Shown piece after piece: positions 712-59,555 of a stretch of 64,000 nucleotides of DNA; position 1 is the stretch's first letter, and the number at the start of each line of letters is the position of its first letter. The position numbers and the translations under genes were made by a program. The notes below the pieces were generated by a model that worked only from the letters and a program-made list of their open reading frames with translations, searched no databases and had not been told where the DNA came from. Source of the stretch: Henriciella sp. (GTDB lineage: Bacteria > Pseudomonadota > Alphaproteobacteria > Caulobacterales > Hyphomonadaceae); the NCBI GenBank assembly GCA_013213825.1, contig JABSQA010000001.1, forward strand, positions 33,017 through 97,016, read 5' to 3'.

Positions 712-3141
<2,430 letters not shown>

Positions 3142-32436: not shown

Positions 32437-33315
32437 ATGGAACGCATCCCGACAGACCATCTCGTCCGCGCTTGGCGTCAGGATTTCGGGATCAATGTGG
32501 CGCATTTATTCGCTGGCACAGAACACGTTGAAATGCGCGAAAACGCGGAAACGGGGCATGTCTCCTTCCTCCCGCCAATATTGGGAGATGCCGCGTTCTA
32601 CCAGGCTTTGAGGCGATTTAAATGGTATCATCCGAAGCAGAAGCGTGAGCATGAATATGCGGCTGAGCTGGCGAAAAGCGGCGATCTTGTCCTTGATGTT
32701 GGAGCCGGGAATGGCGACTTCGCGAGGTATTTGAGCGGCGTCGAGTACCTCGGCTTAGAGAGCGATGGTGCTGCCGTCGCTGGGGCGCGCGCGCGTGGGC
32801 AAGATCTACGCGATTTGACGATGGACGCGTGGCAGGCGAGCGCCGAGTTTCGACCCGCCAATGTCGTCACTGCGTTTCAAGTGCTTGAACATGTTTCGGA
32901 TCCCGAGGCGTTTTTGGCTGAGATGTGCGCCTGCTTGCATGAGGCGGGCGAAATGGTGATTGGGGTACCGGATGCTGAAAGCTACATCCGGTCCCTTCCT
33001 GATTTCATGCTCAATGCACCGCCCCATCATATCACATGGTGGACTGAAGCCGCGCTGACAAAGCTGATGGCGAAGGTCGGGCTTGAGGTCGTTGAAACCA
33101 AACGCTTCGCGGTTGAACCATGGGAATACCAATTGTGGTGGATGGCCAAGTTTGCCGGAGACGTAACCCAATCGAACCGATCCTTCTTCGGGCCGCACCT
33201 ACGTTTGAGAAAGATCTGGTCCTTCTGCCTATCCTGGCCATTGCAATGGCTCGCCCCGCCAAAATCGGCCCTTGGGTCGACCCTGGTTGTGCGGGCTCGA
33301 CAGGCGGGGCGGTAG
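32437..33315 (+). CDS. Class I SAM-dependent methyltransferase
   Basis: VLDVGAGNG, FQVLEHVSDP, IGVPD, PPHHITWW. Confidence 0.85.
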   Translation: MERIPTDHLVRAWRQDFGINVAHLFAGTEHVEMRENAETGHVSFLPPILGDAAFYQALRRFKWYHPKQKREHEYAAELAKSGDLVLDVGAGNGDFARYLSGVEYLGLESDGAAVAGARARGQDLRDLTMDAWQASAEFRPANVVTAFQVLEHVSDPEAFLAEMCACLHEAGEMVIGVPDAESYIRSLPDFMLNAPPHHITWWTEAALTKLMAKVGLEVVETKRFAVEPWEYQLWWMAKFAGDVTQSNRSFFGPHLRLRKIWSFCLSWPLQWLAPPKSALGSTLVVRARQAGR

Positions 33316-33356: not shown

Positions 33357-35963
33357 CTATGCGTCGCGCTTTCGCCGGCGCGTGATGATCCAAATGATGC
33401 CTAAACCAACCAGAGCGATCAGCAGCCAGAGCCACCAGGCGAAGCCGGACTGATCATCGTCTTGGCCATCAATTGGCCAGCGGATTTCAAGTGGCTTGGA
33501 GACGTTGCCATTCGCATCGATGGTGAACACAGAGAAAAAGCGCTCCATGCTCGTCTCTTCGATATCTTTGTAATGGAATGACCGATCGCTGCCGCGATAA
33601 AGTTCAACGCCATCGGAGAGGATTTCTGGCGCGCGCACCGCACCCTCAACCAGGACATATTGTGGGCCAGAGCCTTGCCATCCGATCCACAAACCATCGA
33701 AATCGAGGTCAATTGTTGGATCAGTTGGCGTTGATAAATCAACCGGGGTTACATCGACATCTATACTCAACAGGGTGGCTTCATCCCCATCCCAGGAGTC
33801 CACGAGAGCTTCCGCATATTGTAGAGGTGTGATGCGAATGGGTTGTGCCGAATATCCCGCCAGTAATGGTTGAATTTCAAGGAATTTCGCATTGTCCGGT
33901 ACCTCGATTGTCAGGCGATTATCGTTGACAAAACCGGTTCCGAGATCTGTTCGTGTGCCATCTGGATATTGTAGCACCATCTGAACCTGTCGCAGCCCGT
34001 CTATGTCTGCCGGCAAGGTGAATTCGATATCAGAATTTTCCAGCGTCGGAATATTGTGACGCACCGTGTTTGAGCCGCGCTTGTGATAAAAGTCTGCGAC
34101 GCCAATTTGCTCGCCCGTATCCCATTTGCCATTGCCATTGACGTCTGAAAAGAAGCGATGCGCGACGAATAGGGTGTCGACATCATCCAGTGGCGAGCCT
34201 GGCACGGTGCGTTGACCGCGCAACGGCCCCCGCACTTCTCGGTAAATGGACGGCACGTCTTTGATTTGGACGCGATTGATCACCGCCCACATTTGCGCAT
34301 CGGTCAGGTCAATATAGTCTCCAGGATCGCGATTGCTGTCGAGCAGGTCCCAGAGCAGAGCAGCGACTTGAAACTCTTCTCTCATCACCGACTCGCCCTG
34401 TTCTTTGCCCTGAGCGTCGGTCATAATGGTTCCGCTGGCGTCGCGCTTAGGACGCCACATGTTCTGGAAATTATTCTCCAAATCCGTGGCTGCGCCCCAA
34501 TTATAGACGGGGTCATTCTCGACCCAAATTGAGAAGAATTCAGCAAATCCTTCCAAAACGGAATCGACCGAACGGCCATTACTGATCCCGCCATGATTAT
34601 GTTCGCCATCGATCCGACTGGTATAAGTATTTTCTCCACCCATGGCCGAGTCGGCCATCACATGATGACCAAATTCATGATACTCGCGATTATCTGGTGA
34701 GCTCGGGTTGCTGCGCTCACTCTGCCCTTTTGTGCCGCTAATTTCGATTTTTGACTCATTTCTGAAGTAAGTCGCCCCCGTCGATTCCGTGCTCCACAAG
34801 GTCGCATCAACGGGTAGGTTATGATCAAATCGCAAACCCAACTTATCGCGTGCAAACTTCATCGCTGTGTACGTATTGAAGTAGTATGTGCCACCATGCT
34901 CCACGGATTTTTTCTGCACGGCGTTTAACGAACCGGACAGACTGAGACTTCTTTGTTTCAGGAACAGACCCTTAAACACGCGCGGCTTATCAATGTCGAA
35001 CCGCCTCGAGGGTACTCGCACCAATGCCCCGCCAAACCCGGCATTACTGCGGACGGTAAACTCGCCGCCTTTTGAGGCTAAGGTCGCTTCGAGTGTGTAG
35101 CTTGCCGGAGCTTTGTCATAATTGACCTTAAACATTCCCATATCGTCTGTATGGGTCTGGACGATGTGGCCATCGGAAAAGACCACACTGACTTTCACAT
35201 CCCGCAGGTCCTCACCCTTATTCTTCTTATTCAGTGCCAAAACGAAGCCGGCCACTTCGACTGCGTCAAAATCCAGCTCGAGTTTGACTTTCGTCGTCTC
35301 GCCCGCTTCGACCGTCGCGCTCGCTTTGCGGGTTGCCTCCGACCAGCGTTCGTCCTCAAAGGCGACAACATACGTACCAGGCTCAATTCCAACAAAACTT
35401 GCTTTGCCCTTGCTGGTTTTGGAGAGCATTGTTTTGCCGACAGTCTGACCGGTTTCAGGATTGGTCACGCTGACATGTCTGAACCGTACGGACCTGCCCG
35501 TGCGTTTGTTGATAACTGTGACTTCAATCTCTCCAAGCTCGTCAGGCACCTCTTCAGGTTCCACGCCATCGCCACGTCTGAACTGAGAGCCAAAGGAAGA
35601 GTCGATCGCATTGACATCATTGACGGTCATCGTGATCGGGATCGTATAAATTGATGTGAACGGACCGCTTGAAACATAATGGACGCCCTGGATTGTGTTG
35701 CCAGAGAGCGTGCCTTCGAACGTCCGGTGACCTGCAGGTACACAATCGTCGCCGAGCGTCTTGGTGGCGACGATTTTTGGGCCAATGGCTTCAAAAATCA
35801 TGCGCTGTGGCGGCGTAGGCGTTTCACAAAAGTAATTCAAACCAACCCATTCGCCTTCTAAGTCCTTGGCTGTAATGGGTGTTTCATCCGTTTGCGCCCC
35901 TGCGAAGAGTGTGCCGGACAGGCAAAAGAATAGACAAAGTATGGTGAATCCAACGCGGATCAT
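33357..35963 (-). CDS. Secreted, C-terminally membrane-anchored multidomain putative zinc metalloprotease
   Basis: Signal peptide; two prealbumin/CarboxypepD_reg-like domains; YHEFGH...EGFAEF; DVNGNGKWDTGE; FN3-like domain; TM helix plus RRRKR tail. Confidence 0.75.
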   Translation of the reverse strand: MIRVGFTILCLFFCLSGTLFAGAQTDETPITAKDLEGEWVGLNYFCETPTPPQRMIFEAIGPKIVATKTLGDDCVPAGHRTFEGTLSGNTIQGVHYVSSGPFTSIYTIPITMTVNDVNAIDSSFGSQFRRGDGVEPEEVPDELGEIEVTVINKRTGRSVRFRHVSVTNPETGQTVGKTMLSKTSKGKASFVGIEPGTYVVAFEDERWSEATRKASATVEAGETTKVKLELDFDAVEVAGFVLALNKKNKGEDLRDVKVSVVFSDGHIVQTHTDDMGMFKVNYDKAPASYTLEATLASKGGEFTVRSNAGFGGALVRVPSRRFDIDKPRVFKGLFLKQRSLSLSGSLNAVQKKSVEHGGTYYFNTYTAMKFARDKLGLRFDHNLPVDATLWSTESTGATYFRNESKIEISGTKGQSERSNPSSPDNREYHEFGHHVMADSAMGGENTYTSRIDGEHNHGGISNGRSVDSVLEGFAEFFSIWVENDPVYNWGAATDLENNFQNMWRPKRDASGTIMTDAQGKEQGESVMREEFQVAALLWDLLDSNRDPGDYIDLTDAQMWAVINRVQIKDVPSIYREVRGPLRGQRTVPGSPLDDVDTLFVAHRFFSDVNGNGKWDTGEQIGVADFYHKRGSNTVRHNIPTLENSDIEFTLPADIDGLRQVQMVLQYPDGTRTDLGTGFVNDNRLTIEVPDNAKFLEIQPLLAGYSAQPIRITPLQYAEALVDSWDGDEATLLSIDVDVTPVDLSTPTDPTIDLDFDGLWIGWQGSGPQYVLVEGAVRAPEILSDGVELYRGSDRSFHYKDIEETSMERFFSVFTIDANGNVSKPLEIRWPIDGQDDDQSGFAWWLWLLIALVGLGIIWIITRRRKRDA

Positions 35964-57714: not shown

Positions 57715-58569
57715 ATGATGAAAAAACTGCTCGCATCTGCGGCACTCGCGTCACTGACGTTTTCAAGCGTTTCTGGCGCCGATACGGCTTTGATTGAACC
57801 GCATATACTCAGCATGATTGAAGCGGGTCAGCCCATGGAGATGGAGTATAATATTAAGGCCAATGCCTGGGTCTTGATCCTCCCCATTACCGGAAAAGCC
57901 AATTTCCGTGTGACGCTGAACAAAGATACGTATGCGATCAAGAGTCATGTCAAAACCACCGGCCTGGCGGACATTTTGGTCAATTATGATTTGGAAATCG
58001 CTGCATCTGGCTACACTCATGCGGACGGATTAGACACGTATGCCTTCGTCTCTCAGAACAAGGATGGCAAAAAGAATCGCCGCGTGGATCTAAAATACCT
58101 TAAAGACGATTTCGAGATGACCGCGACTCCGCGATTTGGCAATCTTGGCGATCCCGCGGCCACCGTGGAACAAGCCCTTGAGGCGAAAGACCCCGTCACA
58201 GCACTCATTTCGTTTGCTCTGGAACCCCGTGCGGAAGGGGAAGATCCGTGCGGTGGGCCGCTGAAAATCTTTGATGGCCGTCAGCTAACCCATTTGCATT
58301 TGACCAATAATGGTATGACTGAGGTGAAATCCGAAGCTTGGTCCGGGCAAGCTTATGAATGCCATATCAAAATGGACAAAGTTGCAGGCTATAAAGCCGG
58401 GGAATCCGATAAGGACAATTTGTCTGGTATCGATGGGCCTTTGCGGATGTGGCTCGCGCCTTTGCCGAACGGTGCGCATGTCCCGGTCCGCATCGAGGCC
58501 AAGACAGAAGATATTGGAACGGTGACCCTGCAAGCGGCCAAACTCAAATTCACACCGCTTGAAAAATAA
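57715..58569 (+). CDS. DUF3108 domain exported protein
   Basis: Signal peptide; LKIFDGRQL, RMWLAP...VPVRI; usual divergent neighbour of rpmB. Confidence 0.8.
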   Translation: MMKKLLASAALASLTFSSVSGADTALIEPHILSMIEAGQPMEMEYNIKANAWVLILPITGKANFRVTLNKDTYAIKSHVKTTGLADILVNYDLEIAASGYTHADGLDTYAFVSQNKDGKKNRRVDLKYLKDDFEMTATPRFGNLGDPAATVEQALEAKDPVTALISFALEPRAEGEDPCGGPLKIFDGRQLTHLHLTNNGMTEVKSEAWSGQAYECHIKMDKVAGYKAGESDKDNLSGIDGPLRMWLAPLPNGAHVPVRIEAKTEDIGTVTLQAAKLKFTPLEK

Positions 58570-58613
58570 AGAAAAAACTTGCCGAGTGGTGTTGTTGAAC
58601 TATTCTGCAACTC

Positions 58614-58706
58614 AGGCGAGTGTTCCTCCCATATGATGCTCGCCTAATTCACGCACACTAACCCAGACGTGTGAGCGCCCGAATGTCCCCAACATTCGGG
58701 CGCGTT
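58614..58706 (+). ncRNA. Candidate trans-acting sRNA with anti-SD loop (alpha-r8/suhB/MmgR/GsrN-like)
   Basis: TTGCCG-N16-TATTCT promoter; three consecutive hairpins; first loop GUUCCUCCCA; last is a perfect 12-bp stem. Confidence 0.55.
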
Positions 58707-58739
58707 GACGACTCAGCGCGGTCTGCCTAATCGAGCTGG

Positions 58740-59555
58740 ATGACTTCAAATCACCTCAGACTCGTAAGTTGGAATATCAATTCGATCCGGCTTCGTTTGC
58801 CCAATGTCGAAGCCTTTGTGGCAGCGGAAAATCCGGACATCCTGTGTTTTCAGGAAATCAAATGCCAAACAGCCGAATTTCCGGAAAAGGCGTTTAAACA
58901 AATGGGGTTCCCGCACCTGAGTGTGCATGGCCAAAAAGGTGGGCATCATGGCGTGGCGATCGCCAGCAGGAGCCCGATTGAAACCTTAGAAACGCCGAAG
59001 CTTTGCCGAGAAGGGCATGCAAGGGTGAATGCGATACGGGTGAAGGGCCTTGAGTTGCACAATATTTATCTCCCCGCAGGTGGAGATACACCCGATCCTG
59101 ATGAGAATCCGAAATTTGCCCATAAGCTTGATTTCGTGAAACGCCTTGGACGGCACTATGGCAAATTCGCTAGAGACGGCGTGCCACGCGTGCTGGTCGG
59201 GGATCTCAACATCGCCCCTCATCCGAATGATGTCTGGTCCCACAAACAGCTTCTGAAGATTGTCTCACACACGCCGATTGAGACCGAGTGGCTTGAAAAG
59301 GCTCGAAAAAAAGGTGGATTCACGGATATTGCGCGTCACGTACACGATGATGATCAGAGGCTTTATTCATGGTGGAGCTATCGCGCCAGGGACTGGGCCG
59401 CTTCAAACAAGGGGCGTCGGCTCGATCATATCTGGACGACCGAAGCCGCCACGGCGCTCACCGATCTTGAGAGCTATCAGGTGCATTTAGCCTGGCGCGG
59501 CGGGTGGAAACCATCCGACCATGCGCCGATTAGTATTGATATCGCAGCGCCTTAA
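58740..59555 (+). CDS. xth: Exodeoxyribonuclease III (Xth)
   Basis: SWNINSIR, FQEIK, NIYLPAG, GDLNIAP, WWSYR, RRLDHIW, SDHAPI. Confidence 0.95.
   Translation: MTSNHLRLVSWNINSIRLRLPNVEAFVAAENPDILCFQEIKCQTAEFPEKAFKQMGFPHLSVHGQKGGHHGVAIASRSPIETLETPKLCREGHARVNAIRVKGLELHNIYLPAGGDTPDPDENPKFAHKLDFVKRLGRHYGKFARDGVPRVLVGDLNIAPHPNDVWSHKQLLKIVSHTPIETEWLEKARKKGGFTDIARHVHDDDQRLYSWWSYRARDWAASNKGRRLDHIWTTEAATALTDLESYQVHLAWRGGWKPSDHAPISIDIAAP

Follow-up and report, generated by a model that had tools for sequence, protein, structure and literature searches.

Organization of the locus upstream of xth

A stretch of 64,000 nucleotides (nt) from Henriciella sp., referred to below as the window and to which all positions refer unless a related locus is named, contains a three-hairpin element at 58612-58705 of the + strand, directly upstream of the gene xth. 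This element is a real, conserved and unannotated small-RNA gene of about 95 nt, which most likely belongs to the kind of RusT (CCNA_R0199) from Caulobacter crescentus in a structurally reduced form and not to the alpha-r8 family. The upstream gene (57715-58569, + strand) codes for a DUF3108-family protein of 284 amino acids (aa) found in the list of open reading frames (ORFs) and assigned with Pfam PF11306 (E 5.5e-18). Its stop codon is located 9 nt ahead of the -35 box of the small RNA and about 45 nt ahead of the first hairpin, and no terminator was found between this stop codon and the -35 box. On the other side, xth encodes an exodeoxyribonuclease III of 271 aa (58740-59555, + strand; TIGR00633 with 176.8 bits for a cut-off of 99; Pfam Exo_endo_phos), and 35 nt separate the element from the ATG at 58740. 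A repeat element was ruled out, the three-hairpin element being single-copy within the window. The only other occurrence of TTCCTCCC in the window (32566-32573) lies inside a 292-aa ORF (32437-33315, + strand) and is not accompanied by any RNA-like element. A coding reading was also excluded, because the relatives show indels of 1 and 2 nt: no ORF is present on the + strand, and the 45-aa ORF of the - strand (58612-58749) is disrupted by these indels.

The promoter-like region of the small RNA (58570-58606, + strand as all the parts of the element) is composed of an A-tract, a -35 box, a spacer and a -10 box. Directly past the -10 box, a conserved GCAAC marks the putative transcription start zone (58608-58614), placed by alignment. 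Hairpin 1 (H1, 58614-58645), the proposed seed hairpin, has a core stem of 7 base pairs (bp) in which AGGCGAG (58614-58620) pairs with CTCGCCT (58639-58645). The 18 nt between the two arms are UGUUCCUCCCAUAUGAUG, of which GUUCCUCCCA, considered as the whole loop in a preliminary description of this DNA, is only a portion; in the minimum-energy fold, four weak extra pairs lengthen the stem and the loop is CCUCCCAUAU. The anti-Shine-Dalgarno motif GUUCCUCCC is found at 58622-58630, within H1. The following segment (58646-58674) contains the A/U-rich linker UAAUU and hairpin 2 (H2), whose conserved register pairs CACAC (58654-58658) with GUGUG (58669-58673); from the window alone, an alternative pairing joins TCACGC (58649-58654) to GTGTGA (58669-58674). 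Hairpin 3 (H3, 58675-58703) is GC-rich and terminator-like, with a perfect 12-bp stem (58675-58686 with 58692-58703), the loop CCCCA and an energy of -21.4 kcal/mol. It is followed by GUUGACGACUC, without a U run, whereas the other terminators of the window have T runs. The promoter hexamers and the arms of the three hairpins had been correctly positioned in the preliminary description.

Conservation and covariation of the three hairpins

The segment 58614-58703 (+ strand) folds with an energy of -44.9 kcal/mol, compared to -24.1 ± 3.1 kcal/mol for dinucleotide shuffles, against which all fold z-scores were computed (z of -6.8, none of 200 shuffles being as good); the fold of the opposite strand displays a z-score of only -2.9. 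Judged from the relatives of its xth, the window belongs to a Henriciella-like lineage of the Hyphomonadaceae. An alignable intergenic region was found in the related loci L001, L003, L004, L007, L008 and L068, and the metagenome contigs L144, L160 and L197 were added, whereas L002 contains only the end of H3, at a contig edge. The metagenome scan with TYCGGGYRCGTTGACGA was too unspecific, true copies being present in only these three of 120 loci. The three hairpins are kept in nine related marine Hyphomonadaceae sequences, and the sequence CCUCCC in the loop of H1 is invariant across the aligned relatives.

Ten full-length sequences were fitted to the three-hairpin model. In this alignment, 90.4% of the cells are paired, compared to 27-55% when the partners are slid. 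Changes on both sides of a pair were observed for 7 pairs, against 3.7 ± 1.1 in shuffles, and none of 500 shuffles was as high. These changes concern 4 of the 7 pairs of H1, 1 of the 5 pairs of H2 and 2 of the 12 pairs of H3. In H2, the pair A-U is replaced by U-A in L007 and L197, and a different 6-bp helix is present at the H2 site in L068 and L144; in H3, several G-U intermediates accompany the two both-side changes. On the other strand, 11 G-U cells would become A-C mismatches, and the structure therefore fits the + strand only. The conservation and the covariation of the hairpins in relatives, whose absence the preliminary description had named as part of a refutation of its proposal, are thus both present.

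Predicted promoters of the small RNA and of xth

The hexamers TTGCCG (58579-58584) and TATTCT (58601-58606), with a spacer of 16 nt, resemble a promoter; the fuller boxes are CTTGCC/TTGCCG (58578-58584) for the -35 and CTATTCT (58600-58606) for the -10. These hexamers match the consensus at 8 of 12 positions and fall short of the cut-off used in the promoter scan. Two blocks, AAAAACTTGyC and CTAnnnT, separated by a variable spacer and followed by GCAAC, are conserved in L001, L003, L004, L007, L008, L068 and L144. They are missing from L005 and L006, where H1 and H2 are lacking, and are degenerate in L009. Because the blocks occur with H1 and H2 and are missing where these are missing, the promoter and the hairpins behave as one gene. 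Judged from the sequences, conserved blocks on both sides of a variable spacer are a promoter pattern, though a weak one by consensus. The -10 box and the GCAAC of the window resemble the promoter of the Hyphomonas homologs. The start zone was placed by alignment with the Hyphomonas sequence (CATCTTTGCAAC) and with the mapped start of C. crescentus RusT, which comes after TTTAACAC; both ends of the window RNA are thus predicted positions. Since the predicted start precedes H1 by only about 2-6 nt, the window RNA has no 5' stem-loop 1.

The predicted xth promoter (58705-58739, + strand), delimited from sequence and conservation, consists of the -35 box TTGACG (58705-58710), a 17-nt spacer, the -10 box TAATCG (58728-58733) and 6 nt before the ATG. 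The motif CGCGTTGAC ... CTAAGC upstream of xth persists also in those relatives that have no small RNA. At the loci where the distance is directly readable, the end of the terminal hairpin and the ATG are separated by 35 nt in seven Henriciella-type loci (36 in L068) and by 34 nt in the Hyphomonas locus L020. No conserved Shine-Dalgarno sequence precedes xth among the compared loci. An own conserved promoter, a fixed spacing and the lack of a Shine-Dalgarno sequence thus indicate that xth is most likely transcribed from its own promoter as a leaderless mRNA. Termination at H3 is probably incomplete, since this hairpin has no U run whereas the other terminators of the window have T runs. A read-through from the small RNA into xth, suggested in the preliminary description, is therefore possible, but it is excluded as the main route of xth expression.

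Comparison with RusT and distribution of RusT-like genes

RusT of C. crescentus is an RNA of 118 nt with four stem-loops, the last one being followed by a poly-U; it acts in trans and ends at this U-tailed terminator (PMC11005374). Hfq binds at stem-loop 3, and stem-loop 2 provides the seed with its conserved loop (nt 45-57), where C53 is critical (PMC11005374). NtrX represses RusT and iron starvation induces it; the RNA in turn acts as a repressor of TonB-dependent receptors, OmpW and other transporters (PMC11005374). Its gene is located between lolA and xth "in all cases" (PMC11005374; Vogt et al. 2024, mBio). In PMC11005374 and the literature searched, RusT homologs are described only for Caulobacter and close Caulobacteraceae. 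The published RusT primers reveal the 5' end, the promoter and stem-loop 2 (PMC11005374); those of stem-loop 2 match the Caulobacter locus L075 at 30 of 38 positions (2873-2910), a short way ahead of the xth gene at that locus.

The same order of modules, namely a hairpin with the loop YCCCCUCCC, a short hairpin and a GC-rich terminal hairpin, is found immediately upstream of xth in several lineages. RusT-like copies were detected in Hyphomonas (L013, L018-L027, L030, L034 and L063), in Ponticaulis (L037-L039), in L040 and in Caulobacteraceae (L046, L047, L050, L052 and L075). The gene lolA precedes the element in Hyphomonas L020 and in Caulobacter L075, and the DUF3108 gene takes this place in the window. 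A covariance model, R1, based on 19 RusT-like sequences that included no Henriciella-type sequence, was used to scan every position of the window on both strands. The top match is full length, at 58611-58704 (+ strand), with a score of 23.4 bits and an E-value of 0.014, the next match reaching 14.4 bits. The reciprocal model R2 found the Hyphomonas, Ponticaulis and L040 copies with E-values from 2e-4 to 0.04; all these E-values come from a shortened calibration and are rough.

When H3 is removed, the R1 score drops to -0.5 bits, so that at the sequence level the similarity to RusT resides in H3, whose sequence (GCGCCCGAAC...GUUCGGGCGCG) is common to the window and Hyphomonas. R1 aligns H1 to stem-loop 2 of the RusT-like RNAs without any score from H1 itself. 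The loop of H1 contains the invariant CCUCCC like the RusT-like loops (YCCCCUCCC), yet the base equivalent to C53 is a U and the contribution to the R1 score is zero; the seed is GUUCCUCCC in the window and AUCCCCUCCC in RusT. The correspondence of H1 with stem-loop 2 is suggested by the order of the modules, the CCUCCC loop core, the adjacency to xth and the resemblance of the -10 box and GCAAC to Hyphomonas. From its position, H2 would correspond to stem-loop 3, the Hfq site of RusT. No hfq-like motif is present within the 64-kilobase window.

The window element and RusT thus share their location directly upstream of xth on the same strand, a C-rich hairpin loop with CCUCCC, a short middle hairpin or A/U stretch, a GC-rich terminal hairpin abutting the xth promoter, an own sigma-70-type promoter (putative in the window) and covariance models that find the other side from either side. 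They differ by the host, a Hyphomonadaceae in the case of the window, and by the length, the number of hairpins, the 3' end, the upstream gene and the seed.

The small-RNA gene is patchy within Henriciella. The locus L009 (about 2900-3000) contains a decayed copy with a degenerate promoter and an internal deletion, which joins the H1 5' arm directly to the 3' end of H3. In L005 and L006 (about 2900-3000), only an H3-like hairpin is present, behind the DUF3108 gene, and the hairpins are absent from L010-L016. In the Hyphomonas loci L017-L035, the element occurs about 140 nt before the xth promoter in two subtypes. In the first, stem-loop 2 bears the C-rich loop CUUCCCCUCCC; in the second, it has no C-rich loop (L017, L023, L029, L031-L033 and L035). 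Nearly all of these Hyphomonas loci, with the exception of L030, have a 5' hairpin whose loop contains at least six C (ACCCCCC), and this C run could be a second or alternative seed. The Hyphomonas copies likewise lack a clean U run after the terminal hairpin.

Transcription of the Hyphomonas homolog

No RNA run searched holds the sequence of the window, for which only metagenome-like contigs and empty small metatranscriptomes were obtained, or that of its close relatives. The Hyphomonas homolog L020 is present in many metatranscriptomes, of which eight were examined. As these runs were picked on words from L020 2800-3060, the presence of the small RNA in them results from the selection, whereas its boundaries do not. 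The small RNA of L020 is covered by contigs in all eight metatranscriptomes and the 118 nt upstream (2681-2798) in none of them. The contig start is exactly 2799 in two cases and 2805 in a third, contig ends being only approximate transcript ends. A stand-alone contig of 169 nt spans 2805-2972, and X30 and X34 contain short contigs inside or just past the small RNA. In X26, X27 and X28, the contigs run on towards or into xth. The small RNA of L020 thus belongs to a transcription unit whose 5' boundary lies where it was expected, accompanied by some read-through.

The contig starts at 2799 and 2805 precede by 10-16 nt the start that the mapping of C. crescentus RusT predicts. A 509-nt contig of X26 joins L020 2915 to 2951 over a microhomology of 5 nt, skips the terminal hairpin exactly and enters xth; this junction may reflect either a naturally occurring deletion or the skipping of the stable hairpin during reverse transcription. 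The runs X40-X45 resemble low-depth DNA and added nothing.

Comparison with other RNA families

The search with Rfam 15 (RF00519 and all other families) gave no match at the gathering score in the window and none at E <= 10 in 58450-58850. Similarly, no match at the gathering score was obtained in 20 related loci or for any of the RusT-like loci submitted to Rfam 15, and L075 and L020 displayed only sub-threshold noise apart from a weak ar7 match.

Membership in the alpha-r8 family (suhB, MmgR, SisA-D), with which the preliminary description had compared the element, was rejected on the architecture and on the covariance-model test. In the alpha-r8 RNAs (SisA-D, MmgR), the motif UUUCCUCCCU is single-stranded between a weak hairpin and a U-tailed Rho-independent terminator, and the gene usually adjoins that of an N-formylglutamate amidohydrolase (FGase) (PMC12559287). 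The window RNA is also a short alphaproteobacterial small RNA with a C/U-rich anti-Shine-Dalgarno motif, and the match of GUUCCUCCCA to UUUCCUCCCU at 8 of 10 positions was verified; its mode of action is probably also the same, namely the occlusion of ribosome-binding sites. However, its motif occupies the loop at the tip of a strong hairpin of 7-11 bp, with two more hairpins on the way to the 3' end, no U-tailed terminator is present, and the neighbours are the DUF3108 gene and xth, without an FGase gene. The latter criterion is weak by itself because Caulobacter has paralogs elsewhere.

The kinship with GsrN, also put forward earlier, was dismissed on the locus sequence and the promoter. GsrN (CCNA_R0081) is transcribed from a sigma-T (EcfG) promoter GGAAC...CGTT, with a spacer of N15-17 by motif definition and N16 in gsrN, and is usually found near general-stress-response genes, the C. 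crescentus copy being apart from those (PMC5869019). Both RNAs have a C-rich loop in a 5' hairpin, which in GsrN pairs with G-rich mRNA leaders, but the GsrN fold has a long 5' stem and its locus is different. The GGAAC of the sigma-T promoter is absent from 58540-58612, and no GGAAC/CGTT promoter was found there. ChvR was rejected as well, this RNA being specific to C. crescentus and located upstream of recF.

The weak ar7 match concerns the alpha-r7 RNAs of Rhizobiales (Rfam RF02342): L075 2833-2966 aligns full-length to this model, and both have the same order of modules (stem-loop 1, stem-loop 2 with the loop CUUAUCCCCCUCUCC, a linker rich in A/U and a terminator whose loop is rich in C). 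The score of 20.4 bits (E 0.032) is far below the gathering score of 60 bits, and the window element gave no match to ar7 at E <= 10. RusT may be distantly related to alpha-r7, which we consider as a lead only.

Interpretation of the element and alternative explanations

We consider that the region 58612-58705 (+ strand) is most likely the gene of a base-pairing small RNA that acts in trans, measures about 95 nt and is a shortened ortholog of RusT, with a probability of about 0.65. The proposal of an unannotated independent small RNA made in the preliminary description is strengthened by the covariation, by the promoter gained and lost with the hairpins and by the transcription of the Hyphomonas homolog; the exposed C-rich anti-Shine-Dalgarno loop is supported comparatively. 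We infer the dependence on Hfq, the targets, the inducing signal and the common ancestry from the comparison with RusT. The small RNA would be transcribed from its own sigma-70-type promoter (CTTGCC, 16 nt, CTATTCT). The loop of H1 would display the C-rich sequence (G)UUCCUCCC, pair with G-rich ribosome-binding regions and block the translation of the targets which, by analogy with Caulobacter, would be for the most part TonB-dependent receptors along with other transporters of the envelope. H2 and the A/U-rich linker before it would occupy the position where Hfq binds in RusT. Finally, H3, flush against the -35 box of the xth promoter, would end or stabilise the RNA and probably also terminates the upstream DUF3108 transcript; because H3 has no U tail, a part of the transcription probably crosses the xth promoter. 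Among the 130 ORF start regions of the window, the best predicted duplex of the H1 loop is with the gene of an 868-aa protein (33357-35963, - strand), where it covers the Shine-Dalgarno sequence GGGGGGA at -19.5 to -20.9 kcal/mol, the next-best ORF giving -16.6 kcal/mol. This protein has a signal-peptide-like N-terminus and a CarboxypepD_reg domain. Its designation as a target is only suggestive, and target prediction within the window does not settle the matter, since a seed of the anti-Shine-Dalgarno type fits many ribosome-binding sites.

Several observations weigh against the shortened RusT ortholog. The window RNA has three hairpins and about 95 nt, without the 5' stem-loop 1, instead of the four stem-loops and 118 nt of RusT; it lacks the poly-U after the terminal hairpin, follows a DUF3108 gene and not lolA, and has a U in place of C53. 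The R1 score is lost without H3, which could be kept as the terminator of the upstream gene or as an element adjacent to the xth promoter, and the E-values are rough. Moreover, the promoter hexamers are weak, the RNA runs do not hold the sequence of the window and the contig ends used for Hyphomonas are approximate.

The main rival, which we judge unlikely, is an anti-Shine-Dalgarno small RNA unrelated to RusT that has arisen or been inserted at the same site, so that only the terminal hairpin and the context of the xth promoter would be common with the RusT-like genes. It would account for the absence of any contribution of H1 to the R1 score, the different stem sequences (AGGCGAG instead of GCCGG), the other upstream gene, the absence of stem-loop 1 and the H3-like hairpins without H1/H2 in L005 and L006. 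However, the order of the modules, the strand and the exact position are identical, the CCUCCC loop core is common to all lineages, the -10 box and GCAAC resemble those of the Hyphomonas promoter, and R1 and R2 give full-length reciprocal matches. A lower probability is given to a structured 3' untranslated region or terminator of the DUF3108 gene without trans-acting function. The stop codon only about 45 nt before H1, the lack of another terminator after this gene and the lone H3-like hairpin behind the same gene in L005 and L006 are consistent with such a role, but in Hyphomonas and Caulobacter the element follows lolA instead, from which it is separated by a spacer of more than 100 nt with a separate hairpin and without RNA coverage in between. 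The element thus stays beside xth and not beside the upstream gene, the conserved -35/-10 blocks occur only where H1 and H2 are present, and termination has no need of an invariant exposed CCUCCC.

Less probable again is a cis-acting leader of xth, in which transcription from the upstream promoter through the hairpins would act by attenuation or by occlusion of the xth promoter. The missing U tail of H3, the constant distance at which it abuts the xth -35 box, both in Hyphomonas L020 and in the seven Henriciella-type loci, and the contigs of X26, X27 and X28 that extend from the small RNA towards or into xth are compatible with this explanation. It is contradicted by the conserved xth promoter, placed at a fixed 6-7 nt from the ATG without a Shine-Dalgarno sequence even in L010-L016 where the element is lacking, by the stand-alone short contigs at the small RNA (X30, X31 and X34) and by the U-tailed, trans-acting RusT of Caulobacter (PMC11005374). 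The membership in the alpha-r8 family, suggested by the loop identical to the 10-mer at 8 positions, is highly improbable given the lack of any Rfam match, the location of the motif in a hairpin loop and the different synteny.

In addition to a shortened RusT ortholog acting in trans, the U-less H3, set directly before the -35 box of the putatively leaderless xth at a near-constant distance in the Henriciella-type and Hyphomonas loci measured, would constitute a coupling device between the small RNA and xth, an idea that we regard as doubtful. If it were true, the polymerases reading through H3 would occlude the xth promoter, or would yield xth transcripts with a leader but without a Shine-Dalgarno sequence, which would be poorly translated. 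This would happen when the promoter of the small RNA fires, in Caulobacter under iron limitation through NtrX, and one promoter would both release a trans-acting regulator and tune in cis a DNA-repair nuclease.

Implications for the Caulobacterales

The distribution of the element suggests that RusT-like genes ahead of xth characterise the order Caulobacterales more widely, including marine bacteria of the Hyphomonas, Ponticaulis and Henriciella-like groups. It also suggests a modular evolution: the lineage of the window has lost the 5' stem-loop, some Hyphomonas have replaced the C-rich seed loop, and in some Henriciella the whole gene has decayed. These sequences provide a ready alignment for a covariance model that would annotate RusT-like genes, and they form a natural series in which the dispensable parts of an Hfq-type small RNA can be sought.

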